This document shows, piece by piece, positions 1-52,378 of a stretch of DNA of 55,567 nt. The DNA comes from a virus (taxonomy: Duplodnaviria; Caudoviricetes). The stretch covers positions 1 to 55,567 of the IMG/VR virus record IMGVR_UViG_3300008259_000060; one strand, written 5' to 3'. The position numbers and the translations under genes are program-made. The notes beneath the pieces were generated by a model, which was given only the letters and a program-made list of their open reading frames with translations, made no database searches and had not been told where the DNA came from. Numbering within the stretch: the stretch's first letter is position 1; each line of letters opens with the position of its first letter.

Positions 1-3000
1 GCGCTTTCCGGCCTTCTTGGCCAAGTCAGCCTCGAGGTTGCGACCAGACTCTTCGATGTTGCCAGTGTCGTAGCCGCTGATGATGCCAGCGTCCAGAAGC
101 GCTCTGGTCGTTGGAGACATGTTGCCAAGAGCCTTACCGAAACCGATGACCGTATCTACGATAGGGGTCATCTTTTGGCCCGAAGTCACGTAGGACGACA
201 GTGAGTCACGCAACAAGTTGGCCATCATGAAGCCGGGGTCGCGTGTCACCAAGTTGCGCAAGGCATCGGCTGGCATGGCAAGGATTGACAGGCCCGGTAT
301 TTCGCTCAGGTTTAAACTTTGAACGGCATATAGAAGCAGCTCGTCAGCCGTCTCGTAAGAGACGACCTCACCCTTTTCCAAAACGTTGATGACGTTCGGC
401 TCGTTCGACTTGACCGCCAAGCGGGTTGCGCCCATACCCGGAGCCTTGACCTGCGTCACCACATCTATGGCACGCTGGGCTGCGTAGTTCTTTGCACCAG
501 CCTGAATGGCTGACGTGGTGTTACGCACCATGGTCTCGAGGAAATCGGCCAGAGGAGCCTCGGCAGCATCCGCACCTTTGAGCTTCTTCGGTGGCCTGAC
601 GTTGGAGATCGACTGAAACAGGTTTGGTCCGACCGTGCCCTCACCCTCCATCTGGCGATAGAAGGGAACGTAATCAGCGTATTTCACGTACTCAGCGCCA
701 CGCTCTTTGGACAGGACACCCGTGTCCACCATGTACTTGACCAAACCGTTGTTGAAGTTGATCAGGTCTTTCTGGACGTTTACAAACAAGTCTTTGGGGT
801 ACTTCTGTTCCAGAACCTTGGCAAATGCAACGTCGGTTGCGTCAATGCCGGTCTCTTTGCCTTGAGCATTTAAACGCTTACCGCGTTTAACCATGGCCCA
901 GTACTGGTAATGCTGGTAAATCTTTGGGTCGCCGTAAGCTGCCAGTGGCGCGAGGGAGGCAATCAAACCTTTGACACTGGAGTCGATGGTGGTGATGCCG
1001 TTGCGCAGGACTGGGATGCCGACAGTGCGGTTGTCGAAACCCATGGCAGAAGCTGCCACACCAGCAGCAACGTCAGACATCAAGGCTGCGGACTCTGCAC
1101 TCTGATCAGCAAGAAGGGCCGCTCCACCCATTTGCTCTGCCCGCTTTTTATCGTAGACAGACAGCTGGTTGTAACGGTTCAAGGCGGCAGCGCGGAAGTG
1201 GGCTGCGCTCTTTGGAGCGATGGCCTCAACAATGCGGCGAGCAAAGTTCTTCTTTTCACGGCTCGTCGTGGTTTCATTGATGCGATCATCGACACCCTTC
1301 GGCATGACTGGCAGGCTGTACCGAACACGAGGGTCGCTACGATCGTATGAACCAACGTTGCTGAGGGCGGACTTGACCTGACCGGACTCGTAGACGGCGA
1401 TATTCTTGCGGCCATCTTCCTTGACGTAGAAGCCGTCAAAGCCCAGCTTGATGATGGCATCTTGCACTCTTTTGCTCTCGATGAGCTCCCAGCCCCCTCT
1501 CGCAAGAAAACCTTTGTCCAAATCACCAATCTTGCGACCATACTCGTCTGTGGTTTTGTTCAGCTCATCTACCACCTTCTGCACATGAGATGGGTTCTCG
1601 TAGTCAAACGGGTTCTGTGCGCTGACGTACACAGGCAACACATTGGGGCCGGACGGCATCATCTCTTTGTATGCGTTGCGCAGGTACTCTTTGGCCTCTG
1701 GCGTGGCCTTGGAGTAGTCCTCGGTCTTGATGCTGTCGATCATGACCTTGCCTTCTGGGAGGCTGCGGTAGTCCTTGCGAATGGCTGCGATGGCAATCTT
1801 GCGGCCTTCGGCAATCTGCTCTTTGGTCAAGACCTGTTCAACACGGGCGGTGGCTACATCCACGCTGTCTATGGCGAAGCGGTCAGCAAACCTTGGATCA
1901 CTGGTCAAGAAGATGGGCGTACCGCGCTTCTCCTTGCGTGTGAAGTCCTCCACATCTTTCGATGTGCCGTGGTACATCACCAGAGGATTTCCGTCGGCAT
2001 CTACGATCTTGCTATCGCCAAACCACTGTTTAAACTCAGGCGTCTTCGGAGCACGCAGGCTGTAGCTGATGTTCTTGACCTCGCGGTCAAACTCACCAGA
2101 GTTGTCGGTGACGGACTTGAGCTGCGTAGGGTTGTAAACAGCATAGCTCAGCGGGGACGTGCGGTTCTGTCGGCTGATGTAGCCGTCAAAGCCAAGACGA
2201 CGCAGCGCAATTTGAACTGGCTCCTGCTCAATCGTGGAGGTGAAACCTTGCTTCAGGTTACCCGGCAAACCTCTGTACCAGTTGTCTGGGTACTCGGTAG
2301 GGGCGCGAAGCTGTGCCGCCGTCTCACGGTTGACCTCTGATATTTTGGCATCAGGTCTGCGGGTTGCTGCTGCAACTTGAGCTACGTGGTCTGGGTTGCG
2401 GAAGTCGAATGGAGTCTCGGCACGAGCGTACAGAGGCATGATCGACATGCGAGCAGGGGATAGGTCAAGGAGGGCGTCTTTGATGGGTTTATCGAAATCC
2501 CCAAACTTGCCGTATTCAGGTGCCCTGCGCTTGGCGTCACGAATGAACTCTCTGACCTGCTCTTCGGTGACGTTGCCCTTTTTAACCTGCTCACCCAAAA
2601 CCCGCTGGAATAATTCCAGTTTTTGATCTTTGTTTAAAAGCTCGTTGTAAATTTCTTCACGGCGGCGCTCTTCAGCCATGCGGCCAAAGACCTCGGACTC
2701 TTCCGGTGTGCGCGAAAGGTAAATGGCCTGCGTGTCGCCGGACGGCGTGAACTCAAGGAACTCATCCGCAGTCGCATGGTAGAACACCGCAGCTTTGCCG
2801 TCCTCGTCAACCCACTGGTTGCCTGCGATGAAGCGTTTAAACTCTGGCGTCTCTGGCACGCTGGTCTTCGCAACTGCTTCTTTAACGGCCTTGACCGATG
2901 GGAAGCCAACGTTCTTCAGGCTAAATTTCTGACCACTCTCCGACAACTCTGCCCGTGTGCCACGGTAATCGACAGGTGTGTTGTGGTTTAGGACGACCAT

Positions 3001-6000
3001 CATGCCCATGCTGGGCACTGCGTAGCCGTCGTAGCCAGCGTCGATGACGTTGGCCTCAAAGTTGTTGGCGTCACCATTGGCTTCGCGGAACAACCGGCTC
3101 ATCTCTGGGCCGGGCGGCAGGATGTTGTCAAACTTCTGCGTGTAAACGTACTGGCCAACACCAGACTCAGGGATCGGCGTGCTGCCGTCGTCTTTCTTGA
3201 TGTAGAAGTAAACGCGCTTCTTGATGCGTTCATCAAAGGCATCGTCAAGGCGGCGGCGCTCAGCGCCACGTAAACCAGTGCCGTACTTGGTTGCGTCCAG
3301 CTCTTGGACTTGAGCCTTGCCGTAGTGGGCACCTACGTAGCTTATTGCTCCCGCTTGCTTTTTGCCGAGTACGATCCCGCTTCGAGCGCCGGGTCCCTGC
3401 TCAACATCGTCAAGGATTCGCTGTCCTCTAGAAAGGGAGTACTTTGGGGTTTTTTCTTCAAGGAGTTTTGTGGCTTCGCCCCGAAGAGAACGAGCCCGTT
3501 CCCGAACAATTTTCTTTTGTCCTCGGGGGTCATTTTCCGGACTGGCATAGTCGTAGTCTTTCTTTTCGGGGAACGCTGAATACACATCGGTGACTTCAAC
3601 ATCATAGTCACCTTTGAGCTCTTGATCAACCAACTTGGCAAAATCTTCGGTCTTTACACCGGAGTAATTCAAGATGATCATTTTGTTGTTCATGGTCGTT
3701 TGACCACCAACAATTTGCTCACCGTTTACACGAATGTTTCGCAGCTGCTGATACACAGCGTCAATTTCTGACGCGGACTGCGTCTTCACATCAACAACCA
3801 CTGCTCCGGTTTTTTCAAGACCAGCGCCGGGTCGAGGAGATACAACCATCATGCTGTCTTGAGACAGCGCGTAGCCGATGAATTTTGAAATTTCAATAGA
3901 GTCACCACTCTCCAAGAACAGGGCAAACGATGGATTGGTGTCATCAAGATACGATCCAACTTGAGGGAACACCCGGCCATCAAAACCCAAATCTTTTTTG
4001 GCTTTTGCGATGATGTCTTTGACAATCTCATTACTGATTTCCAAGCGCCTCTCTTGTGGCAGCGACCGCCACAGTGAAGTTAACTCGGTGTTGTTTGGAT
4101 CAGGGGCCACCTCAAAGATGACCTTCTTGCGGCGAGGCGCTTCACGTTCCTGCTTTAGGACTTGTTCCGATCGTCGCTCTTCGAGGAAGGCTTCTCTTTC
4201 ATCTGGTTGAAAAGCGGCTTCAGATTTTTTGCCAACTGGTGCAGCTGCTTTTTTGGCTGGCTTGCGAGCCACTGGTTGTAGTGCTCCTGATCCTGATTGA
4301 GCCGCTCTATCAATTGCTGTTCCATCGAAACCCTCCTTCACTAGTATTTTCTTCATCGCGCCAGCGTAGTCTTGGCTGGTCACGCGCAACTTCACACCAA
4401 GAGCCTTGTACAACTCTTGCTCTGGGTACCAGATCAACGCTTGCAGTGATGCTGGTGGAATACGTTGGCCGTATGCGTCTTCAACTTTTTTAACAGTCTT
4501 GGTAACAACGTCGCGCAGAAGCCTGCGCTCGGTGCCGCTTTGAGGGGCATCTTTGGGGGCGTCGTAGGACTGAATAATGCTTTGAGCGGCGTACACCAAC
4601 TCACTCTTCTTGAGTGCGCCTTCGTTATACAGCTCACGGGAATTTTTGAAGTCATAGTTGAAGGCGCTGTTGACGATGCGAGCAAATTCAACCATGCCCT
4701 CAACGCTTTCCAAGGCTTTGTTTACAGTATCTTCTTTGAAATCGCTGGCATATATACCGTCGTCACCAGTCTCTTTGATGGCGTTGATGAAACGTTTGAT
4801 CTGGTTGTCAAACTTTTTCTGATCAAACCCTTTGAGCTTGCCTGTCAGACGACCAATGGTTCTCATGAACCACATGTCCATCGTGACAGGTTCAAAGTCG
4901 CCGCTCAGGTTGGAGTAGAAACCAAATCCAATCTTGGGGCCAAAGATGGCAGAGCCAGTGACCATTTCATCTTTAAGCTCGCCCGTGATGTCAAACCCAG
5001 CAGATCGCAGCTCATCAACCCGGAACTCGGTTTGCAAGAACTTACGCAGGTCGGCCATGCCGTACTGGCGAATCATCTCATTTGCAAGAATGAAGTTGGC
5101 CTTCATCGCTGCACCATCTGCGCCAGAACCCGTTTCTTTAAATCTACCGTTGGCGACGCCGTTTGCTTTTTGCTGGTCTCTAAAATAATCGTACTGAGAC
5201 GTGGCAAACAAGAGGTTGTCCTCGACGTTCAAGCCTTGAGATGAAATCGCAATTGCGATTCTGAAGGCGGCCCTGCTGTCTTCACTGGTTGCCAGCTCTG
5301 GATATTTCAATGAAGCAGTTCGCATCATTGTGTCGATGACGCTGTCGTACCACTGAAGGGCATTACCACCAGCATTGATGGCCGCCATGGCTTCAGCAGC
5401 AAGCAGGCTGGATAACTGCTCTCGATCTTGTGGATTGTTGATGTCCAAAACCGGAACGCCGGAAGCCAAGCGCAGGTCTTCCAAGTGCTTCACAACTTTT
5501 GGCAGCCCACCAATACTCTTCTGTTTAAACTGGTTTGCTCCAGATTTGCCGGTTTGCAATTGGATTGATGTTGCCTTGAGTAGGTCGGCATCAACTTTGA
5601 GCTGCTTGGCAACCTTTCTTGCAACCGGCAGACTGAGTTTGTTGTCCTCTTTAGTCTCTGGTTTTGCCTTTGGCTTGCGGGACTTCAACTTACCAAGATC
5701 AATCCGCTCGAAGATGTCATCGGCAGACTCAAAACCTGCACCACGCAGGGCTTGGCCAAAGTTCACAAAGAAGTTCTTCAGCTTCTTGTACAAGGCTGCG
5801 ATCAGGCCGGGGGGTGGCGTAGTGCCACGATCGTAAGCACCGAAGGCGTCAGCAATGGCCTCCTCGACGATGTCTTCTTGCGACAGACCCATGCGTTTAT
5901 ACGCATCAAGGCGTGTAACCTGCTGAGGCTTACCGTCGATCATGACTTCGGCCGTTTGTCCCTCGAGGTACTCCTTGATCCACTGCTTCTCGGCACGCTC

Positions 6001-7857
6001 GGTCAGGGCCTTCCATTGCTGCGGGGTGAAGAACTGAAGTTCCTTCAAAGCATGCATGGACTCGTGGCGCATCGTCTGGAGCGGTTTATCCGCATCCATG
6101 GCGACTTGGATCAGGTTACGGGCGTAGGAGCCGTCGGCGGACTGGCCGTCGTCGGTCTTGATGGCCTCGACAATGTTTAAACCAACATCACCCAAGTTGA
6201 ACTTGGCGAACGCGGGCTTGAGAACAGACTCGATTTTCTTGGTTTGGAACTCAACCTCTGCCTGTTTAAACGGCTCAGGTGCAATCTCCCGCAGCGTGCT
6301 CTCTGCAGCCTCAAGGCTAGGGAACACACCAACCTGCTCATCACCACGGTTGACGATGAACTCGTTTTGCACCTCTGTGCGTGTACCCATGGGGGCAAAC
6401 GTCAGGGGTGTCGAGTAGCTTTCAATCCGGCTATCAATGTCGGTCAGCTTCTCAGAAGCTTCTTGCTGTTTTAGGTCCAGCGCAGCCTTGGCTTGGACGT
6501 ACTGATCCGTGTCGGTCTGGCCCGTAGCCTCCATGACCTCAATCTTGCGGCGCTCGGCAAGAAGTCCGTTGTTGATCTTTTCGGACTCTTTTCGCAGGCG
6601 CTCTTGCTCTTCTTGACGAATTTGGGTCAAGGACTCCAGCTTTAGCGCGGCTTCCTCTTGGGTGGCAACGGTTGCCAAAGGCTTTCCGCCGCCTTCTGGG
6701 AAGATGCCAAACGCTTCGGGAACATCCTGACGGCTCAGCTCACGGCGGGTGACTGTGAAGCCTCCGGGCAGTTCGACGGGTGGCTCCACCTCAGCTTCAG
6801 CCTCTACGTCGGCTGGCACAGTGCCGGGAGGAAGCTCTTGCTCTGGTCCTGCCTGACGGGCAAACTCTTCCCGCTCGCGTTCAAACTCAGCAACAGCCTC
6901 TGGAGGCTGTTCTCCGACAGCTTGACGGGCCACGACTGTATCTGCAGCTCCACTGGCAGCGCCCAATGGGCCGCCAATCAAAGCGGATTGATAAGCAACT
7001 TCACCGTACTCGGCAAGAGCATCGGGAGATGTGATGTCAAGTCCAGCTTGAGCGCGTTCAATAATGCTTGACGCAATCTCAACTGGAATCTCTACGGCAA
7101 CACCACGAGCCGTTCCTTGGGCGGTGGCAGAAAGCAACGAGCGATTCGCCGCATCAAGCATCTCTTGCTTGGCCTTTGCTGTTGCCAAAGCTGCGTCATC
7201 TGTGATGCCGAGCAAGCCTTTAACAAGGCGCTTACCCAGAATAAGTGCAGGTGCGGCAGTTTCAAGTGCTGTCTGACCAACAGCACCTGCGCCAGCAGCA
7301 AGGCGGTTAATGTCCACCTCTTCATTACGGGCCATCTGCTCAGAGGCTTGACGTTCAACGTTAGAGCCAAACAACTGAGGGAGCAAGGTTGCTCCAGCGC
7401 CCAGTGCACCGCCAACAACAGTGCCAACAGGACCAAAGCCCGAGCCCAGTACTGCGCCGGTTTTTGCACCGCCAGCCATCAACGCAAGCTGTGCGGCTTG
7501 GCTTGCTACTGCTCGGGGAGCTTGGTCAATGACTTCGCCAGCGGCAGAAAGCAAACCCTTTTCTCGGTAGGCGCGTTTAACCGCCTCAAGGGAAACACCC
7601 TCGCCAGCCTCTTCGCCAATTGCCTCACTGCGCTGCACGCCGGCTCTTGCAGCCTCTTCAGGCGAGCTGACCAAGGCACCGATACCAGTGCGAATGGAGG
7701 AGGCAAGCTGCTTACCGCCACGCACCAGTTCACTACCGATGGTGGAGTCGCGGTCTTCTTCTGGTGCTGGTGCACCAAGGGCTTCTTCCAAAGAAAATTC
7801 GGTAGGTTTTTTTATTCCTCGGCCCAGCGCCTCTTCCAGAGAAAACTCTTTTGCCAT
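1..7857 (-). CDS. Giant (>2,619 aa, 3'-truncated by the window) polyvalent internal-virion/ejection-type protein: zincin peptidase, HhH-glycosylase-like domain, 2-3 ADP-ribosyltransferase-like domains, LPD38-like C-terminal region
   Basis: ATG at 7857 with AGGAG RBS upstream. The frame reads as protein at spots checked down to base 1, and the ORF track lists no stop-terminated ORF from this start. Motifs: HESMH (~6060); GPKIGFGFYSNL..VTMDMWFMR (~4900); FKQWFGDSKIVDADGNPLVMYHGT and a paralogous copy (~2030, ~2830); YVPFYR (~665). Confidence 0.88.
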   Translation of the reverse strand, partial: MAKEFSLEEALGRGIKKPTEFSLEEALGAPAPEEDRDSTIGSELVRGGKQLASSIRTGIGALVSSPEEAARAGVQRSEAIGEEAGEGVSLEAVKRAYREKGLLSAAGEVIDQAPRAVASQAAQLALMAGGAKTGAVLGSGFGPVGTVVGGALGAGATLLPQLFGSNVERQASEQMARNEEVDINRLAAGAGAVGQTALETAAPALILGKRLVKGLLGITDDAALATAKAKQEMLDAANRSLLSATAQGTARGVAVEIPVEIASSIIERAQAGLDITSPDALAEYGEVAYQSALIGGPLGAASGAADTVVARQAVGEQPPEAVAEFEREREEFARQAGPEQELPPGTVPADVEAEAEVEPPVELPGGFTVTRRELSRQDVPEAFGIFPEGGGKPLATVATQEEAALKLESLTQIRQEEQERLRKESEKINNGLLAERRKIEVMEATGQTDTDQYVQAKAALDLKQQEASEKLTDIDSRIESYSTPLTFAPMGTRTEVQNEFIVNRGDEQVGVFPSLEAAESTLREIAPEPFKQAEVEFQTKKIESVLKPAFAKFNLGDVGLNIVEAIKTDDGQSADGSYARNLIQVAMDADKPLQTMRHESMHALKELQFFTPQQWKALTERAEKQWIKEYLEGQTAEVMIDGKPQQVTRLDAYKRMGLSQEDIVEEAIADAFGAYDRGTTPPPGLIAALYKKLKNFFVNFGQALRGAGFESADDIFERIDLGKLKSRKPKAKPETKEDNKLSLPVARKVAKQLKVDADLLKATSIQLQTGKSGANQFKQKSIGGLPKVVKHLEDLRLASGVPVLDINNPQDREQLSSLLAAEAMAAINAGGNALQWYDSVIDTMMRTASLKYPELATSEDSRAAFRIAIAISSQGLNVEDNLLFATSQYDYFRDQQKANGVANGRFKETGSGADGAAMKANFILANEMIRQYGMADLRKFLQTEFRVDELRSAGFDITGELKDEMVTGSAIFGPKIGFGFYSNLSGDFEPVTMDMWFMRTIGRLTGKLKGFDQKKFDNQIKRFINAIKETGDDGIYASDFKEDTVNKALESVEGMVEFARIVNSAFNYDFKNSRELYNEGALKKSELVYAAQSIIQSYDAPKDAPQSGTERRLLRDVVTKTVKKVEDAYGQRIPPASLQALIWYPEQELYKALGVKLRVTSQDYAGAMKKILVKEGFDGTAIDRAAQSGSGALQPVARKPAKKAAAPVGKKSEAAFQPDEREAFLEERRSEQVLKQEREAPRRKKVIFEVAPDPNNTELTSLWRSLPQERRLEISNEIVKDIIAKAKKDLGFDGRVFPQVGSYLDDTNPSFALFLESGDSIEISKFIGYALSQDSMMVVSPRPGAGLEKTGAVVVDVKTQSASEIDAVYQQLRNIRVNGEQIVGGQTTMNNKMIILNYSGVKTEDFAKLVDQELKGDYDVEVTDVYSAFPEKKDYDYASPENDPRGQKKIVRERARSLRGEATKLLEEKTPKYSLSRGQRILDDVEQGPGARSGIVLGKKQAGAISYVGAHYGKAQVQELDATKYGTGLRGAERRRLDDAFDERIKKRVYFYIKKDDGSTPIPESGVGQYVYTQKFDNILPPGPEMSRLFREANGDANNFEANVIDAGYDGYAVPSMGMMVVLNHNTPVDYRGTRAELSESGQKFSLKNVGFPSVKAVKEAVAKTSVPETPEFKRFIAGNQWVDEDGKAAVFYHATADEFLEFTPSGDTQAIYLSRTPEESEVFGRMAEERRREEIYNELLNKDQKLELFQRVLGEQVKKGNVTEEQVREFIRDAKRRAPEYGKFGDFDKPIKDALLDLSPARMSIMPLYARAETPFDFRNPDHVAQVAAATRRPDAKISEVNRETAAQLRAPTEYPDNWYRGLPGNLKQGFTSTIEQEPVQIALRRLGFDGYISRQNRTSPLSYAVYNPTQLKSVTDNSGEFDREVKNISYSLRAPKTPEFKQWFGDSKIVDADGNPLVMYHGTSKDVEDFTRKEKRGTPIFLTSDPRFADRFAIDSVDVATARVEQVLTKEQIAEGRKIAIAAIRKDYRSLPEGKVMIDSIKTEDYSKATPEAKEYLRNAYKEMMPSGPNVLPVYVSAQNPFDYENPSHVQKVVDELNKTTDEYGRKIGDLDKGFLARGGWELIESKRVQDAIIKLGFDGFYVKEDGRKNIAVYESGQVKSALSNVGSYDRSDPRVRYSLPVMPKGVDDRINETTTSREKKNFARRIVEAIAPKSAAHFRAAALNRYNQLSVYDKKRAEQMGGAALLADQSAESAALMSDVAAGVAASAMGFDNRTVGIPVLRNGITTIDSSVKGLIASLAPLAAYGDPKIYQHYQYWAMVKRGKRLNAQGKETGIDATDVAFAKVLEQKYPKDLFVNVQKDLINFNNGLVKYMVDTGVLSKERGAEYVKYADYVPFYRQMEGEGTVGPNLFQSISNVRPPKKLKGADAAEAPLADFLETMVRNTTSAIQAGAKNYAAQRAIDVVTQVKAPGMGATRLAVKSNEPNVINVLEKGEVVSYETADELLLYAVQSLNLSEIPGLSILAMPADALRNLVTRDPGFMMANLLRDSLSSYVTSGQKMTPIVDTVIGFGKALGNMSPTTRALLDAGIISGYDTGNIEESGRNLEADLAKKAGKR

Positions 7858-7869
7858 CAAAAACTCCTG

Positions 7870-30562: not shown

Positions 30563-30563
30563 T

Positions 30564-36676: not shown

Positions 36677-36685
36677 GTTTACACC

Positions 36686-41546: not shown

Positions 41547-42125
41547 ATGACAACCACCAACCGTGAAGACTGGCTGACCGCCGCCGTGAATGAACTGCGC
41601 CCCTTCTTTGATGCCATCAACAAACCCCTGCCGCAGAACGTTCGTGTGACGTGCGGGTTTCCATCGAACGCCAAGCGTTCGGGTGCTATCGGTGAATGCT
41701 GGGCCGACACCGCCTCCGCAGACAAGACCTTTGAGGTTTTGATCAGCCCCACCTTGGACAACCCCTTGCTGGTGTTCGAGGTGCTGGTGCATGAGTTGTG
41801 CCACTCGACTGCCGGGGCCATGAACCACGGCCTCAACTTCCAGAAGGTCGCCGCCCTGATGCACCTTGTGCCAAGTGCTGGCCCGAAAGGTTGGAAAGCC
41901 ACGGGCCGTTCCTCTACCTTTGAGCCGACCTTCGGCGAGATCATCTCGTCCCTCGGCGCATACCCTCATGCGGCCCTGACCATGAACACAAAGAAGGTGC
42001 AGACCACCCGGATGTTGAAGGCCGTGTGCCCATCCTGTGGGTACACAGTACGCCTCACCTCTAAGTGGGCCGCCCTTGGCCTACCGTCCTGCCCACAGGA
42101 CAGTGACACCCTCAACCTCGTTTAA
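41547..42125 (+). CDS. SprT-like zincin metalloprotease with C-terminal Zn ribbon
   Basis: VLVHELCH...NHG..F; CPSCGY...CP. Confidence 0.75.
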   Translation: MTTTNREDWLTAAVNELRPFFDAINKPLPQNVRVTCGFPSNAKRSGAIGECWADTASADKTFEVLISPTLDNPLLVFEVLVHELCHSTAGAMNHGLNFQKVAALMHLVPSAGPKGWKATGRSSTFEPTFGEIISSLGAYPHAALTMNTKKVQTTRMLKAVCPSCGYTVRLTSKWAALGLPSCPQDSDTLNLV

Positions 42126-42139
42126 ACAGGAGACCAGCC

Positions 42140-43624
42140 ATGATCGCCACGAATACCCTCACCCCAATCAAAAACGAAATCTTGAAGTTGCCCATCGCCC
42201 GTGTCATGGGCGCTTGGGATTTGCACGGTGACAGTCGCCCCCTGCTGGGGTCGGTGAGCAACCAGAAAAACACCGCCGCAGACCTGCTGGCTGAGGCCGT
42301 CCACCACGGCAAGCTGACGTTGGACGCCATCCGCAACGCCCCACCAGCCGCACCACCTGCCTCGGCAATCCCTCAGGCAGACCCCGCTGTTGCCGCCGTG
42401 GCGGGTCGTGCCGCCGCTGATGCTCTCGATGCCCTGCAAGCGGTTCAGGACATGAGGGACGGGTTCAAATCCGACCTGACCAACCTCAATACCCGCCTCG
42501 CCATCGAGCGTGAAGACCGCACCGCCGACCTCGACCAGATCAAGGCCAGCCTCGAGAAGATCAGCAAGGCCAGCAAGGTGAAGGTCGATGACCGTAAGGT
42601 AGAAGAGGCCGTGGCCCGTGTGGTCGCTGATGCGTTTGCACCGTTCAAGGCCGCAGTCGAGGCCGCTGGCGCTCAGGCCGTGGTCGCCGACCTGTCCTCT
42701 GTGCGTGTGGTCAGCACCGAGACCTGCCTCGATGCGTTCGGCGTGAACGTGTTGGATCGAGCCGGGAACCCCCTCACGGTGGACATCTGGAACGACCCGA
42801 CTGCCCCGGCTGTTGACCCTCACTTCATCTGGACGCACGACATCCTCCAGCACCTGCTGTTGACGCAAGAGACAGGCGAGAACGTGTGGTTCGGTGGCCC
42901 CAAGGGCACGGGCAAGTCAGAGACCGCCCGACAGTTTGCCGCAGTCACAGGCCGTGCGTTTAAACGCATCAACTTTCACAAGTACACCAGCGCCGAGGAC
43001 TACATCGGTGCGGTGGGTTTGGAGAATGGTCAGACCGTGTTCAAGCGTGGCGACTTCCTCGCCGCCTTCACTCACCCCAGCACCGTGATCCTGCTGGACG
43101 AGGTGACCAACGCCGACCCCGGCGAACTGGCCCCGCTCAACGGGTTCTTGGAGCCCAACAGCGCCGTGTCTTTTGGCGGGTCTGTCCAGAGCCGTGCCCC
43201 CGGTGTGCTGGTGTTCGCCGCCGACAACACCCTCGGGAATGGTGACGACTCGGGCCGCTACGCCGGGACACGTTCAATGAACAGCGCCTTGGTCGATCGC
43301 TTCGCCCGTGTGGTGGAGTTCGGCTACCTGCCCATCGAGTCGGAGGTCGAGGCCGTGGTGCGCCACACCAAGTGCCATCCTAAGCTTGCCGAGCATATCC
43401 TTGCCGCCGTGCGCTTGGCCCGTGAGAAGGTGCAGACGGGCGAGGTGATCGATGCCCCATCGATCCGCTCGGTGATCGGTTTTGTTCGTGCCCTGCGGGT
43501 GTTGCCCATCGACAAGGCATGGGCCACGACCATTGCCGCCCGTCAACCAGCCGAGTCGCTTCCCGGCTTGACCGCCATATACGTGTCCTGCATCAACGAG
43601 GACACCATCAACCAGTACCTGTGA
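42140..43624 (+). CDS. MoxR/CbbQ-type AAA+ ATPase (CobS-like)
   Basis: GPKGTGKS Walker A, ILLDE Walker B, AADNT.G.GD..GRYAGT..MN.A..DRF; N-terminal coiled coil. Confidence 0.88.
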   Translation: MIATNTLTPIKNEILKLPIARVMGAWDLHGDSRPLLGSVSNQKNTAADLLAEAVHHGKLTLDAIRNAPPAAPPASAIPQADPAVAAVAGRAAADALDALQAVQDMRDGFKSDLTNLNTRLAIEREDRTADLDQIKASLEKISKASKVKVDDRKVEEAVARVVADAFAPFKAAVEAAGAQAVVADLSSVRVVSTETCLDAFGVNVLDRAGNPLTVDIWNDPTAPAVDPHFIWTHDILQHLLLTQETGENVWFGGPKGTGKSETARQFAAVTGRAFKRINFHKYTSAEDYIGAVGLENGQTVFKRGDFLAAFTHPSTVILLDEVTNADPGELAPLNGFLEPNSAVSFGGSVQSRAPGVLVFAADNTLGNGDDSGRYAGTRSMNSALVDRFARVVEFGYLPIESEVEAVVRHTKCHPKLAEHILAAVRLAREKVQTGEVIDAPSIRSVIGFVRALRVLPIDKAWATTIAARQPAESLPGLTAIYVSCINEDTINQYL

Positions 43625-43631: not shown

Positions 43632-45224
43632 ATGAACATCGAAACCATTCTCTCCCGCCCCAACCTGCGCGGGTATCAGTTCCGACAGGGCCTTGAGTCG
43701 TTCGCACACAAAGCCGCCCAGTCCCTTGGCCTTGAGAAAATCAAGGTTTACTGGCTGGCTGACGTGCAGACCGCTGGCATGAGCGGTAGCAACGACCTGT
43801 ACTTGTCCAACGTCACCGATGAGGCCATTATCAGCCGTGCGCTGGTCTTGAAGTACGCTGGGTACGTGGTGCATGAACTGCTCCACAGCAAGTACACCAA
43901 CTTCAACGTGCGTGGATCGAGCCAGTACATCCAGCAACTGCACAACGCCGTGGAGGACGGTTGGATCGAGAACACGGGCATCCAGTGGGGAATCTTGGGC
44001 AACATCGCCCCCCTGCTGGGTGAGTTGATCGACACCATGAACCGCCAAGCACTGGCAGAGGTGACCGACTGGGACGACCCAGCGCAGTACCCCTACCTGC
44101 TGGCTGTCCACTGCCGCAAACACGCCACCGTGAAGTTGCCCGTCAACCCCCGCCTGTTGCCCATCTTCGATGAGGCCGCTCGGCGGTGCTACAACGCCAC
44201 CTCCAGCGCCGACACCTTGCTGGTCGCTGAGTGGGTCTATGACCAGATCAAGCAAGAGTCGGACAAGCCCAAGGACAAGCCCAAGGACAAGCCCAAGGGC
44301 AAGAAGGCCGACCAGAACACACCCTCAGAGCCACAGGATGGGCCTACAAGCCCCTCAAATGACGAGGGTAAGGGTGAGGGTACTGCCGAGGGTGAAAAGC
44401 CTTCCCCCATCAAATCACCCGAGGGTGTTCAGGCCCGTGAGGTCGAACCCAAGCTTGAAGAGGGTGGCGCGATGGGCAATTACAGCGCCGACTATGACGT
44501 GCGGAGTGGCAAGGTCTGCACGGGTGGCAGGATCGAGGTCACCGATGTACCGATTCCCGCCAAGCTTCGCTACGAGGTCAAGCGCCTGTTCGAAAACTCG
44601 GGCATCACTGAGTTCAGCCGCAACCGCAAGTTCGGTTCTGTCAACGTCCACGCCCTCCCGGGTGTTGCCGCTGGAAACGATCGTGTGTTTAAACGCCGCC
44701 TCGATGTCGAGGGTATCGACTCTGCCGTGGTGATCCTGCTGGACATCAGCGGTTCGATGTTCGGCAATGACGACCCCAAAAAGCACCGTGTTGTGTCTGC
44801 GGTTCAGGCTTGCCGTGCGCTGATGGACACCCTGACTGCCGCCGGGGTCAAGGTTGCCGTGGTGGCTTTCGGCACTTACGTGTTCGAGTTGAAGACCTTC
44901 GATGGCAATCACCGCAAGACCAGCGCCCTGCTGGGCACGGTGAAGCCAGCGGGTGGAACGAACGACTACGCCGCCCTGCGCCATGCCCACCAGATGCTGA
45001 TCAAGCGCCAAGAGAACCGCAAGCTGGCCTTCGTGATCACTGACGGGCGAGGCAACGTTGATGGTGTGCGCCAACAGGTAGCCTCTGGCAACGCCTTCGG
45101 TGTGACGACCATCGGCATCGGCATCAACACCGACATCGCCGACATCTACGGCAACGCCGTCACCATCCGCAAGCCCGAGGACATCGGCGCTGTTTCATTC
45201 AAGCAGATCAAGCTTGCCGCTTAA
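43632..45224 (+). CDS. VWA-domain partner protein (CobT-like) with N-terminal HExxH
   Basis: VVHELLH..NAVED; acidic/Pro linker; MIDAS DISGS, GGT and ITDG. Confidence 0.85.
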   Translation: MNIETILSRPNLRGYQFRQGLESFAHKAAQSLGLEKIKVYWLADVQTAGMSGSNDLYLSNVTDEAIISRALVLKYAGYVVHELLHSKYTNFNVRGSSQYIQQLHNAVEDGWIENTGIQWGILGNIAPLLGELIDTMNRQALAEVTDWDDPAQYPYLLAVHCRKHATVKLPVNPRLLPIFDEAARRCYNATSSADTLLVAEWVYDQIKQESDKPKDKPKDKPKGKKADQNTPSEPQDGPTSPSNDEGKGEGTAEGEKPSPIKSPEGVQAREVEPKLEEGGAMGNYSADYDVRSGKVCTGGRIEVTDVPIPAKLRYEVKRLFENSGITEFSRNRKFGSVNVHALPGVAAGNDRVFKRRLDVEGIDSAVVILLDISGSMFGNDDPKKHRVVSAVQACRALMDTLTAAGVKVAVVAFGTYVFELKTFDGNHRKTSALLGTVKPAGGTNDYAALRHAHQMLIKRQENRKLAFVITDGRGNVDGVRQQVASGNAFGVTTIGIGINTDIADIYGNAVTIRKPEDIGAVSFKQIKLAA

Positions 45225-45472: not shown

Positions 45473-45548
45473 TCTACGCAAGACTGATCGTTTACGCATT
45501 CGCCATCACCATTCTTGGGCTTGACCTGTTTTTGTGGAGGCCAGACTG

Positions 45549-45770
45549 ATGACCGTAGAAGAGGATGCGTTTAAACACATGAATGAAGCCTACGACCAGA
45601 TCGTGATGGCTCTCGACTCAAACCATCTGGACAGGGAGGACGCCTTCGCCCTTCTCGCCCAGATGCTCTGCCAGTTGTCTCAGGATGACCGGGATCACTT
45701 CATCAACAAGATGAACTTTTTTTACAGCATGGAAAAAGCCATGCGCCCCGAACTCAAGGAGATGCACTAA
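45549..45770 (+). CDS. Hypothetical protein
   Basis: GGAGG RBS before ATG 45549. Confidence 0.5.
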   Translation: MTVEEDAFKHMNEAYDQIVMALDSNHLDREDAFALLAQMLCQLSQDDRDHFINKMNFFYSMEKAMRPELKEMH

Positions 45771-46003: not shown

Positions 46004-46223
46004 GATCAAAACCCTGCGTGACCCGTGCCCACACTTCGCCCGACAAGCCATTGAGTTCGACCATTTGCTGGAGATTCATCCCGACAAGCAGAGGTTCAAA
46101 CGGGGCGAGAAGTTCATCAGGTACGAGCGCATGCGATGGTGCGTTTACACGCACTCTGACAGCCCGCAAATCTACGGGCGCTACAACACTGTAACCACTG
46201 CAGTGTTTCATGCATTGAAATGA
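45996..46223 (+). CDS. Hypothetical protein
   Basis: Probable GTG start overlapping the previous gene; ends at the terminator. Confidence 0.45.
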   Translation: MRKIKTLRDPCPHFARQAIEFDHLLEIHPDKQRFKRGEKFIRYERMRWCVYTHSDSPQIYGRYNTVTTAVFHALK

Positions 46224-46278: not shown

Positions 46279-47973
46279 TCAGAACATATCCAAGTTCTCG
46301 GAATACGTACCTGCGGTTTTGTTGAATATCAGGGTAGTCTCACCCTGCGTCCCTACCCAGCGGTAGCGGCACTTCCAGACCGCCAACTCCGTGTAATTGT
46401 CTTTGCGGTGGATCGTGATACCGCAGTCGGTCTTCGCCCACCATGCCATCGAGCCGCTGATCGACATACCGTCCGGCCTTGGTTGCTCCACACCCGAGCG
46501 TGTGATCTTGCTGGGATGGGCCACGAACCATGTGTGTACATCGTGGGCCATGCAGAACTTCTTCACCTTGGTGAGAATCTCGCTGATGGCGTTCGTCTCG
46601 GTCTTGTCCGATCCGGGCATCTCGATGTAGTTGTACGGGTCAATCACCAGACCACGCACACCCATGCGCTTCACCGCCGCCCGTGCCCGTGTCAGGATCG
46701 AATCCAACGTGCTGGGTTCTTCGCCATTGGTATCGATGAAGAGGAAGTGTTCGTTGACCCATTTAAACGCATCATCCGATACCTGTTTACTCATCCGATC
46801 CCGGCCTTCGTAGAAGGATTGGAATGTGTAGAGTTCCATCAGTCGGGTGATGTGGACTTCGGGCTGGTTCTCGAAAGAGCAGATCGCAAACTTCCAGTCG
46901 TTGTCCCGTGCGAGGTTGACCATCAACTGATCCACAAAGTTCGACTTACCAGACGATGGGTAGCCCGTGACCACCGTCATCTGCCCCGGTGCGATGGTGT
47001 AAAGGCTGTCAATGGATGGGTAGCCCGTGCTGAACCCCTTACCCGTGCCTTTGGTGTAGAGGTCGTTGATCTTGTCAGCGTAGGCCGTGGCTTCGGAAAT
47101 GCCATTGATGGGATACGGTTCTGCGTCTTCGATGATCTTGTTTAAACGTTCAACCGGGTTTAGCTCCGCCGTCGGGTCATCGTCGAGCCATGCGTCGTTT
47201 AAATCTTTCCATTCAAACTTGGCGAGTCGGCACTTCTCTTTGCCGATGCGTCTTGCGAGTTCTTCTGCCAGAGCCTGACCGGGGCCGTCCTGATCAGTCG
47301 CCAGCACAACGTAGGGTGCGGCATCGATGATCTCTCGGGCGTTCCACACAAACCCAAACTTCTTGTCTTCTGTCGGCAGTACCTTGCCGTCTGCAACCTT
47401 AACTGGTGCGCCGCCCGGGACGCTCACCACGTTCTTGATACCTGCCTCGATGGCGGTCAGGCAGTCCATCTCGCCTTCGACAATGATGAGGGGCTGGCCC
47501 TTCTCCACCTTGTCGATGCCAAAGAAATCATGTGCCCCACCTGCGTCTTGTGTGAAATCCTTCGCTTCGATGCTTCGGTACTTCGCCGAGACCAGCGCCC
47601 CGTTTCGGTAGTACGGGAAGCCAACCGCCTGTGTGGGTTTACTCAGCCGGGAGAAGAACTTCTCCGCCGAAAAGAGCCTCATTGAGTCTGCGGTGATCTC
47701 CGATATGCCCCTCGACTTGAGCCATTGGTAATGCTGGAAGGTAAGCCTGTTGCTGACGATTGACTGAGCAGGTACAACTGACAATTTGGTCTCCTTGGGT
47801 TGCACAGAACCCGATGCGTAACAGTGGTGGCAGTGATAGACAACTGCGCCGTCATCCTTGCGGGTCAGCGTCATGTCTTTGAGGTTTTGTTTTCTGCGGT
47901 CAGGTGTGCAGAATGGGCAGATGACCCGGGTCGAGTCGTGGAAATGTGTATCAGCTACAAGAGCCTCAATCAT
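46279..47973 (-). CDS. Primase-helicase (T7 gp4/Twinkle-like)
   Basis: N-terminal CPFC..CHHC zinc-binding domain, TOPRIM IVEGEMD and ATDQDGPG, SF4 helicase TGYPSSGKS and VIDPYN. Confidence 0.92.
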   Translation of the reverse strand: MIEALVADTHFHDSTRVICPFCTPDRRKQNLKDMTLTRKDDGAVVYHCHHCYASGSVQPKETKLSVVPAQSIVSNRLTFQHYQWLKSRGISEITADSMRLFSAEKFFSRLSKPTQAVGFPYYRNGALVSAKYRSIEAKDFTQDAGGAHDFFGIDKVEKGQPLIIVEGEMDCLTAIEAGIKNVVSVPGGAPVKVADGKVLPTEDKKFGFVWNAREIIDAAPYVVLATDQDGPGQALAEELARRIGKEKCRLAKFEWKDLNDAWLDDDPTAELNPVERLNKIIEDAEPYPINGISEATAYADKINDLYTKGTGKGFSTGYPSIDSLYTIAPGQMTVVTGYPSSGKSNFVDQLMVNLARDNDWKFAICSFENQPEVHITRLMELYTFQSFYEGRDRMSKQVSDDAFKWVNEHFLFIDTNGEEPSTLDSILTRARAAVKRMGVRGLVIDPYNYIEMPGSDKTETNAISEILTKVKKFCMAHDVHTWFVAHPSKITRSGVEQPRPDGMSISGSMAWWAKTDCGITIHRKDNYTELAVWKCRYRWVGTQGETTLIFNKTAGTYSENLDMF

Positions 47974-48221
47974 TTCATGGCCCCTGAGCTTGTGCGTTTA
48001 AACGACCGATTGGCCGAGGCCGGTTTCGCTTTGAGGTTGCTGCGAGCAGATGTCCCGCCTTTACTGAGAGGGGTCATGTGATCGACATCCTTGCCGTCAC
48101 CCTTCTTCACGACCCCTTCACGCTCCAACATTCTCCGGGCTTTGTTTCTCTGCGCCCTTTTCTTCTTCACCGCCTCTGTCCCATCGTAGTTGGCGTACTC
48201 TTCTTTGTAGTTCCGTGGCAT
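47970..48221 (-). CDS. Small HNH-like endonuclease
   Basis: MPRNYK.EY...RA.RN.ARR...GDGKDVDH..PLSKGG...SNL....ANRS; AGGAG RBS. Confidence 0.7.
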   Translation of the reverse strand: MPRNYKEEYANYDGTEAVKKKRAQRNKARRMLEREGVVKKGDGKDVDHMTPLSKGGTSARSNLKAKPASANRSFKRTSSGAMK

Positions 48222-49112: not shown

Positions 49113-49524
49113 CTCTGTTGCTCTCTGTTCTTTTACGCCGGATGGATAGTTTCCACCCAAAGACCCCCTACCCCACGGGATGTGAGGAGAAGGGGAAGGT
49201 TCCACCCCTGCAAAGCAGGATCATCATGTGACGGATCGTCCGTCTACCCTCGGCTTGATGATTCGACCAGCCGCACGGATTATTCGGGAACTGCCCCCTA
49301 GACGTGAGTCATACCGTGTCGCGGTTTTCTTCCGAGCGGCCCCACTTGCGGCCCCTGCTGTCGTGCGGAGTACGGAAGTCGTGGAAAGTACAGACGTAAA
49401 AAAGCCGCTTGCAACTGCGATCCCGGTAGCAACCTTGCCTAATACCTCTCAACGGGCATTAGGCAAAGCGGAATCGCATGTGTAAGCGGCTTCAATTTCT
49501 GTCACTTGCTACGGCAACAGCTTC

Positions 49525-49554
49525 ACTGTACCACCACATTTCAACCAGTGTCAA
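49525..49554 (-). promoter_or_regulatory. Sigma70-like promoter TTGACA-18-TACAGT (TGn extended -10) for the replication operon
   Basis: Perfect -35 box; directly precedes the structured leader. Confidence 0.6.
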
Positions 49555-49581
49555 GCACCTTGTTGAAAAATATTTGTCTTC

Positions 49582-49673
49582 GTTGAATGTTGTTGGATGT
49601 TGTTGGACGTTACTGGAACCACGGCAGAACCACGGCAGAACCACGGGGTTCATACAGGGTTCACACAGGGTTT
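49582..49673. repeat. Three consecutive short tandem repeat sets (9, 11 and 11 bp)
   Basis: (GTTGGATGT)-like x3-4; GAACCACGGCA x~3; GGGTTCA(T/C)ACA x2.5. Confidence 0.75.
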
Positions 49674-49854
49674 GCGTTTAAACGCTATGGATATTAATCG
49701 CCAAAAAGGCGAGGGTATCAGAGGTTACAGACGTTACAAGTGGAGTTATGCGTTTAAACATTACAGCTCAACCGGCTGCCTGCGAGCTGCACGCCGGCCT
49801 GCTTTTCGTTTACACTGGCAGGGCAGGGTGTCTCCCCTTGCAGTTGCTTCTCCT

Positions 49855-50289
49855 TCAGCCCCGGCCTTTGCGCTGGGGCTTTTTTATTGGGGCAACGGAC
49901 TCGATCTTCTCCACCAGTATTTCTGCCCGTGGGTTCTCGGGGTCAAGCCCCCAGTACGCATGGCGCTCCTTCACCTGCCTGTCGTTCTCATAGATCAACC
50001 CCTGCATCAGGTCGAGGATCAACGACTCGTCCAAGTCTGGCCTTCGGCTGGCGTAGAAGATGTGCAGAGTAACTCGCAGATCACCCGTCATCAGCGTAGC
50101 CAACGGCTGGCACTGTTGCCGAAAAGCATCAGAGTAGTTCAACGCCTTCTGCGACTTGATCAGACGGGACATCCCCCCGAACTTCACCACCCTCCTGCTG
50201 TTGGCCTTCGATGCTGGCTCACCAAAAATAATTTGCACAAGGGCTTGCAATTCTGGTGTATCATCACTATCATTGGAGATGTCAGTCAT
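49855..50289 (-). CDS. rusA: RusA-like Holliday junction resolvase
   Basis: GEPASKAN..., RRPDLD...DLMQG.IYENDRQV...NPRAEI. True start may be TTG 50250. Confidence 0.75.
   Translation of the reverse strand: MTDISNDSDDTPELQALVQIIFGEPASKANSRRVVKFGGMSRLIKSQKALNYSDAFRQQCQPLATLMTGDLRVTLHIFYASRRPDLDESLILDLMQGLIYENDRQVKERHAYWGLDPENPRAEILVEKIESVAPIKKPQRKGRG
49858..49886 (+). terminator. Rho-independent terminator
   Basis: AGCCCCGG..CTGGGGCT followed by TTTTT. Confidence 0.6.
50245..50273 (+). promoter_or_regulatory. Sigma70-like promoter TTGCAA-17-TATCAT
   Basis: Upstream of the exonuclease RBS (GGAG). Confidence 0.5.
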
Positions 50290-51750: not shown

Positions 51751-52378
51751 TCTGCTGAAGCTGAACGTCAACGAACACGTTGAGAAGAAACAAAACCTGT
51801 CCTACCTGTCGTGGGCATGGGCATGGGCTGAAGCCCTGAAGGCAGACCCTGCCGCCACGTTTGATGTGCAGACCTTTGACGGCAAGCCCTACATGGAAGT
51901 GAATGGCACGGGCATGGTCTGGGTCACCGTCACCATGTTCGGCAAGCCTATGACCTGTTTCCTGCCTGTGATGGATCACCGCAACAAACCCATCACCAAC
52001 CCTGACGCATTCCAAGTCAACACTGCGCTGATGCGTTGTATGACCAAGGGCTTGGCATTGCACGGGCTGGGCCTGTACATCTACGCCGGGGAAGACCTAC
52101 CCGAAGGTGACGCAGAGCCTGTAATCGTCAAGGCAGTGACCCAGAAGGCCACAGCCGATGTCGAGGTCAACACCGGGAACGCAGATGCGAACGCAGAGTT
52201 GTTCGCCGAGGGAATGATCACCTACACAAACCATTGCGAGGACGCAATGAGTTTAAACCGTTACTGGAAGGCCAACCAAACACAGTTGGATGGTCTCAAG
52301 GTAAGTCACCCTGCTCTCTATGAGCAGGTTCGCAATCGCTTCGCAGAACTCAAGAAGCAATTTTCGGAGAAACAATAA
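51722..52378 (+). CDS. Sak/DUF1071 ssDNA-annealing recombinase
   Basis: VEKK..LSYLSWAWAW, LPVMD.RN, RC..K.LA.HGLGLYIYAGEDLP. Confidence 0.85.
   Translation: MNQVPMNQVDLLKLNVNEHVEKKQNLSYLSWAWAWAEALKADPAATFDVQTFDGKPYMEVNGTGMVWVTVTMFGKPMTCFLPVMDHRNKPITNPDAFQVNTALMRCMTKGLALHGLGLYIYAGEDLPEGDAEPVIVKAVTQKATADVEVNTGNADANAELFAEGMITYTNHCEDAMSLNRYWKANQTQLDGLKVSHPALYEQVRNRFAELKKQFSEKQ

Follow-up and report, generated by a model that had tools for sequence, protein, structure and literature searches.

The window analysed here is virus record IMGVR_UViG_3300008259_000060 taken as a whole, 55,567 nucleotides that form a complete 55.6 kb record of a podovirus-like phage. Iterated throughout this genome is an 8-bp palindrome, GTTTAAAC, together with two asymmetric variants, and its extended form, Y-GTTTAAAC-R, is a selected, cis-acting, lineage-specific DNA site that travels with a block of genes involved in DNA packaging by the terminase and in early replication. 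It is probably kept as a binding signal tied to DNA-replication genes, and we infer that a sequence-specific factor encoded in that same block reads it. Since short palindromes are targets of restriction, one expects phages to lose them. This group of phages does the opposite: it overrides codon preference in order to carry about one copy per kb, and the sites persist over deep divergence.

Dispersed words kept by selection are already known, as stoperators, HIP1, Chi, KOPS, uptake sequences and DnaA boxes. What appears new here is a restriction-type 8-bp palindrome enriched across a lytic-looking clade of freshwater phages, with arrays, switching between variants and clade-specific avoidance of the perfect form. 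A search of the literature, to which supplements of the papers describing HTVC023P-type genomes could still add, gave no description of a GTTTAAAC-type motif in phages. With a defined 8-mer, a short list of candidate readers, lineages that altered or lost the motif and arrays located next to replication genes, we have at hand a natural experiment, which could reveal how phages mark their DNA, in a new way, for the purposes of replication, regulation or self-recognition. In practice, the motif can also serve to recognize members of the clade in metagenomes and to bin them.

Abundance, grammar and conservation of the site

The window contains 24 exact copies of GTTTAAAC (0.43 per kb), when dinucleotide shuffling gives a mean of 0.68 (n = 100, sd 0.87, maximum 4), and this word is the most over-represented 8-mer under Markov models of order 2 and of order 3. 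The original prediction, made by eye, had listed 24 copies where under one would be expected by chance: all 24 positions proved exact, no extra copy exists, and the six variant copies that it named as examples are all present. For the variant GTTTACAC and its complement GTGTAAAC taken together we count 21 copies (15 on the plus strand and 6 on the minus strand) where 1.28 are expected, while a third member of the family, ATTTAAAC/GTTTAAAT, overlooked at that stage, occurs 9 times against 0.88 expected. Summed together the three forms make 54 sites in 55.6 kb, about one per kb, in a genome where the GC content varies between 0.52 and 0.60 per 5 kb.

Gene positions of the sites rest on our own calls of open reading frames (ORFs). 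According to these, 17 of the 24 perfect sites are intragenic and the other 7 lie outside ORFs or at their edges. Only two coding frames are used, because the palindrome contains TAA: nine sites are read as G-TTT-AAA-C (Phe-Lys) and eight as GT-TTA-AAC (Leu-Asn). TTA accounts for 55 of the 1329 leucine codons of the window, yet TTA-AAC makes 14 of the 59 Leu-Asn pairs; TTT-AAA makes 14 of the 37 Phe-Lys pairs, in codon totals where AAG (640) exceeds AAA (381) and TTC (336) exceeds TTT (275), in agreement with the earlier remark that the motif uses AT-rich codons against a genome preference for TTC, AAG and CTG. When codons were shuffled 500 times among synonyms inside genes, the non-coding sites being kept fixed, GTTTAAAC was recovered 7.35 times on average and 11 times at most (24 in reality), and the GTTTACAC family 8.07 times on average and 13 at most (21 in reality).

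Conservation was measured on the 13 of the 24 perfect sites that could be aligned to relatives of the perfect type, making 120 site-relative pairs. The site is intact in 57 of these pairs and some member of the family is present in 64, when flanking 8-mers are identical in 240 of 1680 comparisons, that is, 3.3 times less often. Three intragenic sites are kept in all aligned relatives, the perfect one at 44687-44694 in the VWA gene described below (11 of 11) and the GTTTACAC variants at 46143-46150 on the plus strand (9 of 9) and 53490-53497 on the minus strand (8 of 8). Shuffles, Markov models and conservation together rule out the view that composition, codon use or amino-acid sequence would suffice to produce the enrichment, to which we leave practically no credence. 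The proposal that the word is a selected DNA signal, in numbers far above a codon null and preserved beyond its surroundings, is thus borne out.

The grammar of the site emerges from a pool of 65 non-redundant contigs of relatives (812 kb), which contains 591 perfect sites against 34 expected, a 17-fold excess. Only 2 of the 12 single-mismatch classes are enriched there, GTGTAAAC (296 against 30 expected) and ATTTAAAC (179 against 44), the remaining classes standing at 0.4-1.8 times expectation; symmetric double changes are not enriched, with 5 GTGTACAC against 10 expected and 8 ATTTAAAT against 14. A pyrimidine precedes the site in 80% of cases, hence the extended form Y-GTTTAAAC-R and an enriched unit of 8-10 bp. 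The perfect, GTGTAAAC-type and ATTTAAAC-type forms substitute for one another at single orthologous positions, and the asymmetric form reverses its orientation between relatives at 39741, 47140 and 49808. It follows from this mutual replacement and from these flips that we are dealing with one site, in which one half is exact and the other tolerant: GTGT or ATTT may stand in for one half-site, but not for both. An orientation rule for the asymmetric variants was considered and rejected, the apparent strand bias of GTGTAAAC stemming from a few conserved positions in the gene of the terminase large subunit (TerL). There, GTGTAAAC lies on the sense strand in 58 cases to 1, and the opposite is found in the primase gene (20 to 0) and in the gene of a winged-helix protein (wHTH; 16 to 0).

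A motif that follows the terminase and early-replication block

The contigs compared in what follows are kin, and some were retrieved more than once, so that counts do not stand for independent events. Viral contigs found with the portal protein are for the most part devoid of the motif: 70 out of 80 have no GTTTAAAC at all, and only L061, L062 and L066 reach 3-6 copies (the full records of L066 and L061 have 12 and 13 copies in about 40 kb, with 2 and 0 copies of the reversed control word). No copy exists in two near-complete relatives, G004 (54 kb) and G005 (62 kb). The picture obtained with the primase-helicase is quite different. Where this protein is at least 67% identical, all 35 contigs carry the motif family, with up to 31 copies in 21.7 kb and a GC content between 0.44 and 0.58, and GTTTAAAC is the top 8-mer in 32 of them; eight contigs with primases 28-32% identical have 0-1 copies. 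Contigs found with wHTH bear the motif in 80 cases out of 80, at least one perfect copy being present in 76, and all 80 contigs found with a SprT-like protein reach at least 0.72 family sites per kb.

The gene of TerL, at 36686-38179 on the minus strand, places the motif-bearing G001 and G002 (77-78% identical) above the motif-free G004 and G005 (50-52%), and the portal ranks them the opposite way. The motif therefore travels, in a mosaic genome, with the genes of the small terminase subunit (TerS), wHTH and TerL and with the early-replication genes. It marks a large clade of uncultured freshwater phages, following this block and not the portal.

A trio of adjacent plus-strand genes co-occurs with the motif. 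It begins with the SprT-like protein (41547-42125; phrog_6361), which has an HExxH motif and a C-terminal CxxC...C ribbon, and continues with a MoxR/CobS-like AAA+ ATPase (42140-43624) and a VWA/CobT-like protein (43632-45224) that also has an N-terminal HExxH. The density of family sites is 0.6 per kb or more in 167 of the 169 loci with trio genes and 0.45-0.59 in the remaining two, and none of the motif-bearing contigs that extend over the region lacks the trio. This association is perfect but rests on a single loss, that of G006, and the domains of the trio do not suggest a sequence reader. As a known unit the trio was looked for and dismissed, since its members were not together in the cultured phages inspected: homologues of the SprT-like protein exist in Microbacterium, Arthrobacter and other phages, without MoxR or VWA neighbours in the one genome inspected, Zeta1847, and the matches of the MoxR gene belong to the 'CobS' family of phages. 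L109, L119 and L124 have lost the HExxH of the SprT-like protein.

Some lineages changed the motif. In a primase tree of 124 sequences (78 unique), the leaves that lack the perfect type are a distant outgroup at 32% identity, the pair L103/L128 (support 1.0) and a clade of six leaves (support 0.89). The L103 type has 0 GTTTAAAC, 20 ATTTAAAC/GTTTAAAT and 7 ATTTAAAT, and G010 has 2, 34 and 5 of the same words. G009 and L286 have no perfect site, 15 and 8 GTGTAAAC, 3 and 0 TTTAAA and 1 and 0 GTGTACAC, and L122 has 1 perfect site with 15 sites of the GTGT type and 10 of the ATTT type. Two clades thus avoid the perfect palindrome yet retain its one-off forms, which would be those that escape an enzyme cutting GTTTAAAC or TTTAAA. 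To find residues that accompany the change, 13 core proteins were scanned for positions that do not vary among perfect-type phages but differ from them in both variant lineages, which yielded TerL E35Q, E104 and V241T, wHTH S38A, VWA A268 and Sak D155. Two candidates for specificity were discarded. Wider tables show that wHTH S38A and H45 do not track the motif type, and the replacement of Tyr..Thr by Leu/Phe..Ala/Ser in the strand of a ribbon-helix-helix-like (RHH-like) protein fits only one clade, so that it counts as one event.

G006, a 35.7 kb contig of the same clade, stands for the loss of the motif. It keeps TerL (77% identical), wHTH (55%), the TerS-like protein (52%) and the primase (64%), as well as the exonuclease, Sak and the RHH-like protein, and no other 8-mer is enriched in it. 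It is the sole contig spanning TerS to primase that lacks the trio, with other genes located between the DnaA boxes and the primase gene; one of these replacing genes codes for a protein with an N-terminus that looks ArdC-like.

The only lead to a host is a 3.4-kb contig binned in a metagenome-assembled genome (MAG) of the Burkholderiaceae. That MAG has 41 sites in 2.1 Mb against 45 control words, and many of the 41 are on short, phage-like contigs. In G011, the MAG with L393, contigs C18, C30, C112 and C209 each have 2-3 GTTTAAAC within a few kb, in addition to the contig with the primase gene, and these short motif-bearing contigs may be other fragments of that phage that were sorted into the MAG. 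The enrichment is absent from this family as sampled: among 151 Burkholderiaceae genomes the motif is rarer than the reversed control in 140, equal to it in 1 and commoner in 10, with a maximum of about 0.04 per kb against the 0.43 per kb of the window. Motif-bearing phages also span a GC content of 0.43-0.58. We conclude that the enrichment belongs to the phage block and does not mirror host composition, at least as far as this family of hosts is concerned; phages so different in composition probably grow on different hosts.

Arrays, promoters and the possible reader

Arrays of at least three perfect sites spaced 25-55 nt apart are found in 23 of 396 loci. Several consist of 3-7 GTTTAAAC set between the stop codon of the primase-helicase gene and a terminator (L120 11686-11878; L101 2884-3017; L394 1313-1729). 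In L113-L117, L120 and L124 the array begins 5-21 nt past this stop and extends to the terminator, between convergent genes, and the last copy is always followed by a run of A and the terminator hairpin. The longer word TGTTTAAACG occurs five times within 190 nt in L120 and three times in L101. The 3.4-kb contig binned with the Burkholderiaceae MAG has 7 sites in about 420 nt after its primase gene, among which repeated GCATCCCCACGA-like words and a perfect DnaA box are interspersed, an arrangement that looks like an origin of replication. A putative origin can be proposed in the window too, at 39438-39510, where five DnaA-box-like 9-mers, two of them perfect TTATCCACA, are clustered within a 28-nt inverted repeat (39405-39544), between the leftward terminase operon and a rightward early promoter; this cluster is likely to be a phage origin using the host DnaA. 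The densest stretch of the window, 9 family sites in 36677-39314, spans the terminase genes immediately to the left of the cluster, which site 39307 flanks on that same side, and site 39741 is located about 230 nt to its right. Perfect DnaA boxes are among the top 8-mers in the relatives L171, L192, L194, L196, L199, L203, L205 and L211.

Sites are also concentrated near gene starts. According to crude gene calls, non-coding DNA and ORF edges account for 16% of the pooled sequence and contain 280 of the 591 perfect sites; 13.5% of all perfect sites have their centre 10-35 nt before a predicted start, when random positions do so in 2.8% of cases. The GTGTAAAC/ATTTAAAC-type variants show no such peak in the same pool, and no preferred spacing between motif and start codon was found. 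The best sigma-70-like match of the window, TTGACC-18-TATGAT at 39731-39760 on the plus strand (10/12, with TG), holds in its spacer the perfect site 39741-39748, at which a family member is kept in all 7 aligned relatives. The original prediction had placed site 30547-30554 in a promoter spacer as well: this part did not stand, as a sigma-70-like scan of 30300-30750 gave 0 sites, and this copy is simply non-coding, downstream of the capsid gene (30605-31534, minus strand). Another promoter-like sequence, TGGACA-17-TAGACT at 39338-39366 on the minus strand (9/12, with TG), lies so that site 39307-39314 is about 24-31 nt downstream of its -10, and 29 nt upstream of the TerS-like start. Finally, the perfect site 38417-38424, just upstream of the ribosome-binding site of the wHTH gene, adjoins the GTTTACAC variant 38427-38434 (plus strand), and the pair overlaps what can be read as TTGCGA-N16/17-TAAACT, the minus strand of the variant giving the TAAACT of the -10; this reading scores below the scan threshold, and the motif pair recurs at the same place in L096, L098, L125, L061, L062 and L066.

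The account to which we give most weight, while holding it as tentative, is a replication-linked role. We favour it because arrays adjoin the primase gene and a DnaA box, sites recur about once per kb, the link with the primase block is strict, no polymerase was detected and the grammar is half-exact. The site would be read symmetrically or on either strand, its AAAC half being exact and the other half GTTT, GTGT or ATTT. Dense arrays beside the primase-helicase gene or a DnaA-box origin would be loading or initiation sites, and the sites dispersed at about one per kb would serve the gp4-like primase-helicase, or an accessory origin-binding protein, as points of loading or priming, while copies that overlap promoters would double as operators. 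Such a scheme would be suited to this phage, which seemingly borrows the host DnaA and for which no DNA polymerase was detected. It recalls DnaA boxes, GATC and iteron-type elements, which are likewise short words that gather at an origin and are also met in promoters and over the rest of the genome; here arrays adjoin a replication gene and a DnaA box in relatives. The difference is that the reader and the chemistry of these elements are established, whereas the origin assignment proposed here derives from DnaA boxes and repeats.

A particular form of this account, which we regard as rather doubtful, is that the gp4-like primase-helicase needs a long template signal, made of a 4-nt primer-coding part (GTTT, GTGT or ATTT) and an invariant cryptic AAAC. 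A word of 8 nt is too rare by chance, and the genome would therefore be forced to carry it about once per kb; the palindrome would serve both strands, and arrays would mark the origin. There is a likeness with T7 gp4-type primase sites in the co-occurrence with a gp4-like primase-helicase at about one site per kb, and an invariant half coupled to a variable one might correspond to a cryptic element coupled to a primer-coding part. This would be, if true, the first case of a primase specificity visibly shaping a whole genome sequence, synonymous codons included.

Several observations weigh against a replication-linked role and must be kept in mind. The window has no array after its primase gene, and single sites only flank its DnaA-box cluster. 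G006 has 1 perfect and 1 variant site in its 35.7 kb, despite the persistence in this genome of every candidate reader (primase, wHTH, RHH-like and TerS-like), a fact that bears equally on the regulator discussed below. No primase residue is changed in both variant lineages, and neither the wHTH helix nor the RHH strand tracks the motif type cleanly. The asymmetric variants follow no strand rule with respect to transcription, to the genome axis or to the putative origin. All the links are correlations among related genomes. The bias towards non-coding DNA, the excess upstream of starts and the site within a promoter spacer are at least as compatible with transcriptional control. The template words of known gp4-type primases are 3-5 nt long, 5'-GTC-3' in the case of T7. 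These words differ from the present site in being that short, in not being known to be over-represented and in being read on single strands, and no strand bias is seen here. AtTwinkle likewise has a short site, given as 5'-(G/C)GGA-3' (PMC5737085).

Transcriptional control is the possible alternative that comes next, although we think it less probable. Here a dimer of the RHH-like protein (53614-53937) or of wHTH (38176-38406) would bind the palindrome, promoter binding switching early and late transcription, and intragenic binding blocking or pausing RNA polymerase. Dimeric binders typically recognize palindromes of this kind, 8-10 bp long and tolerant of one weak half, and we have seen that sites are enriched in non-coding DNA and at 10-35 nt upstream of starts, that the spacer site 39741 is conserved in 7 relatives out of 7, that 39307 lies downstream of a promoter-like sequence and that a motif pair overlaps the presumed -10 of the wHTH gene in the window and in six relatives. 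That last promoter, however, remains below the scan threshold; about half of the sites are deep inside genes, with no fixed orientation; the arrays between convergent genes stand just before terminators, where there is no promoter to control; the DNA-contact residues of wHTH and of the RHH-like protein do not co-vary cleanly with the motif type; and both proteins are present in motif-free G006. The comparison that comes to mind is that of stoperators, asymmetric sites of about 13 bp, oriented with transcription and read by the monomeric immunity repressor of temperate phages. The multiplicity of dispersed copies is found here as well, with 54 family sites in 55.6 kb, but not an asymmetric site oriented with transcription: we have a palindrome of 8-10 bp, without orientation rule, half of its copies intragenic, and no integrase or lysogeny module was seen in the scanned proteins. 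In Cluster A mycobacteriophages, stoperators illustrate how a phage protein, a repressor, can use dozens of dispersed, lineage-specific short sites, including sites in promoters (PMC9283540). Regulation and a replication-linked role are not mutually exclusive.

It is unlikely that the motif reflects a host factor or a link with restriction or methylation, perhaps driven by repair as proposed for HIP1, and acting on GTTTAAAC or TTTAAA. The word does have the form of a type II site, that of PmeI, and two clades drop its perfect form, the GTGT-type genomes having no enrichment in TTTAAA (0-3 copies), as if they were escaping a 6- or 8-base cutter. Yet restriction pressure removes sites and does not create them: the depletion expected from restriction avoidance is not seen in the window, and that of the perfect form is restricted to those two clades among the relatives. 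One-off variants are enriched and not depleted, contrary to what repair-driven conversion would produce, the 151 Burkholderiaceae genomes show no enrichment, the phages span a wide range of GC content and no methyltransferase was detected in the scanned proteins. The analogy with HIP1 of cyanobacteria (GCGATCGC), put forward in the original prediction, is sound in form, both words being 8-bp palindromes iterated far above chance, synonymous coding positions included. It does not extend to the setting, HIP1 being a property of host chromosomes linked to methyltransferases, when the present motif is that of a block of phage genes. A resemblance also exists with Chi, KOPS and DNA uptake sequences, over-represented and dispersed words of 8-12 nt kept by selection on density, which differ in being asymmetric, oriented and located on cellular chromosomes. 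Less credible still is a packaging signal, whereby the TerS-like protein, wHTH or both would recognize arrays and dispersed copies and restrict terminase loading to phage DNA. Small terminases usually bind arrays of short repeats (lambda cosB, P1 pac), the genes of TerL, wHTH and TerS-like travel with the motif, and the densest stretch of the window spans them; against this, arrays adjoin the primase gene and not the terminase genes, and G006 keeps all three proteins without the motif. Very improbable, finally, is a signal at the level of RNA, GUUUAAAC acting as a translation or frameshift element. A palindrome would appear in every mRNA whichever strand is coding, U-UUA-AAC in the Leu-Asn frame is a classical slippery pattern, used by 8 of the 17 coding sites, and the sites 18289, 36677, 38417 and 42120 abut start codons or ribosome-binding sites. 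An RNA signal, for its part, needs no dyad symmetry; there is no preferred spacing to starts, frameshifts inside TerL, primase and other genes would be harmful, and some arrays are in untranslated DNA.

The phage genome and its individual sites

The sequence was found in 20 runs, which are lake or freshwater metagenomes, with no RNA dataset among the runs listed as containing it, and no near-identical cultured phage was found. The nearest named matches of TerL (54-58%) are DSL-LC04, 023Pt_psg01 and HTVC023P-type pelagiphages; the annotation of DSL-LC04 and 023Pt_psg01 includes a module with polymerase A, primase and helicase. In the window, scans of the proteins against Pfam and PHROGs detected no DNA polymerase, RNA polymerase or methyltransferase, some small ORFs having no family match, and Rfam and tRNA scans gave no match. 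The minus-strand half presents, from left to right and hence in reverse order of transcription, a giant ORF, ejection and structural genes, capsid, portal, TerL, wHTH and the TerS-like gene (38633-39277, minus strand). The early region to the right of the DnaA boxes is mainly rightward, with the primase-helicase and HNH-like genes on the minus strand, and it also encodes a PD-(D/E)XK exonuclease and the annealing protein Sak. The T7 gp4-like primase-helicase (46279-47973, minus strand), a candidate reader, has a Cys4 zinc motif, a Toprim domain and DnaB_C. The second candidate, wHTH (38176-38406, minus strand, 76 residues), is a homologue of the LexA N-terminal domain (NTD; Pfam 2.6e-8), matching LexA structures of the Protein Data Bank (PDB) over its whole length with E about 1e-3. 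The RHH-like protein, third candidate, is encoded on the plus strand and recognized by a weak match under the Pfam cut-off; its C-terminal motif (A/S)(Q/E)(M/L)RFPSG...(F/M)(A/G)E is invariant in all 9 aligned homologues.

The giant ORF (1-7860, minus strand) codes for more than 2620 residues and runs off the start of the record, its frame continuing for some 75 codons across the joined record ends. Its sole Pfam match, at residues 2066-2171, is ART-PolyVal, the ADP-ribosyltransferase of polyvalent phage proteins. It contains six perfect sites, in the Leu-Asn frame at 310-317 and 6175-6182 and in the Phe-Lys frame at 2028-2035, 2835-2842, 5523-5530 and 6264-6271. Three more minus-strand ORFs have a site in the Leu-Asn frame: ORF 7870-10623 at 8872-8879, with an in-frame ATG directly after it, ORF 10620-11024 at 10821-10828 and ORF 26126-26824 at 26435-26442. 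Two sites had been described as lying at gene junctions, and our gene calls agree: 18289-18296 is located between the minus-strand ORFs 18303-18581 and 17733-18287, 1 nt before the downstream ATG, and 42120-42127 spans the TAA stop of the SprT-like gene, 12 nt before the ATG of the MoxR-like gene. Within TerL, site 37096-37103 is in the Phe-Lys frame and kept in 3 of 26 aligned motif-bearing relatives (G001, L062 and L066). The early region contributes 42958-42965 in the MoxR-like gene, intact in 8 close relatives and replaced by ATTTAAAC or GTTTACAC in variant lineages; 45569-45576 in ORF 45534-45770 (plus strand); 47140-47147 in the primase-helicase gene, with GTGTAAAC at the same place in L094 and L095; and, within the HNH-like ORF, 47996-48003, which precedes the primase start (47973) by 22 nt and is intact in 13 of 19 aligned relatives. 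Further right, 49676-49683 spans the TAA stop of ORF 49478-49681, 49752-49759 occupies codons 2-4 of ORF 49748-49993 (plus strand), and 52251-52258, in the Sak gene, is intact in 8 of 10 aligned relatives and replaced by GTTTAAAT in L103 and L128.

The GTTTACAC variants are distributed in the same way. On the plus strand they are found at 3724-3731, 13040-13047 (between ORFs 13052-13699 and 11021-13009), 14704-14711, 15118-15125, 25884-25891, 29165-29172, 33688-33695 and 55085-55092, and on the minus strand at 3140-3147, 13366-13373, 16090-16097, 21776-21783 and, within the wHTH gene, 38350-38357. The terminase region has four more on the plus strand: 36677-36684, between the TerL stop and the portal ATG, which it abuts; 36911-36918 in TerL, kept in all aligned motif-bearing relatives but L122 and absent from motif-free portal relatives; 37454-37461, also in TerL; and 38631-38638, at the 3' end of the TerS-like gene. 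The plus-strand variant 49808-49815 is the one that appears flipped, as GTGTAAAC, in L100 and L104. Variants of the ATTTAAAC form are at 868-875, 17615-17622, 41508-41515, 46761-46768, 52807-52814 and 54513-54520 on the plus strand, and at 18844-18851, 21453-21460 and 47197-47204 on the minus strand.

Other repeated words deserve mention. TTGCGAACGTTC, which includes the palindrome GAACGTTC, is present at 38438-38451 of the window and in 2-4 copies per relative in L096, L098, L100 and L125, located before the wHTH gene, at one further intergenic spot and within the SprT-like gene; it could be the operator of the LexA-NTD-like protein. A small plus-strand ORF at 54697-55020 matches the Rap1a family of immunity proteins (Pfam 1.3e-13). 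The early regions of motif-free portal relatives have longer inverted repeats of other kinds, in 5-8 copies, and each sub-lineage seems to have its own. L003 carries TGTGGAGAATTCTCCACA at 3926-7011 and L068 has GTGGACA-N2/3-TGTCCAC at 1598-5853, both of which look like paired DnaA boxes; the repeat of L020 (329-7275) is TTTCCTAC-NN-GTAGGAAA, and L001 has GTGAGAC-N5/6-GTCTCAC hairpins at 950-2964. Runs of TATATATA are among the top 8-mers of many portal-relative loci, for example L053, L056 and L069.

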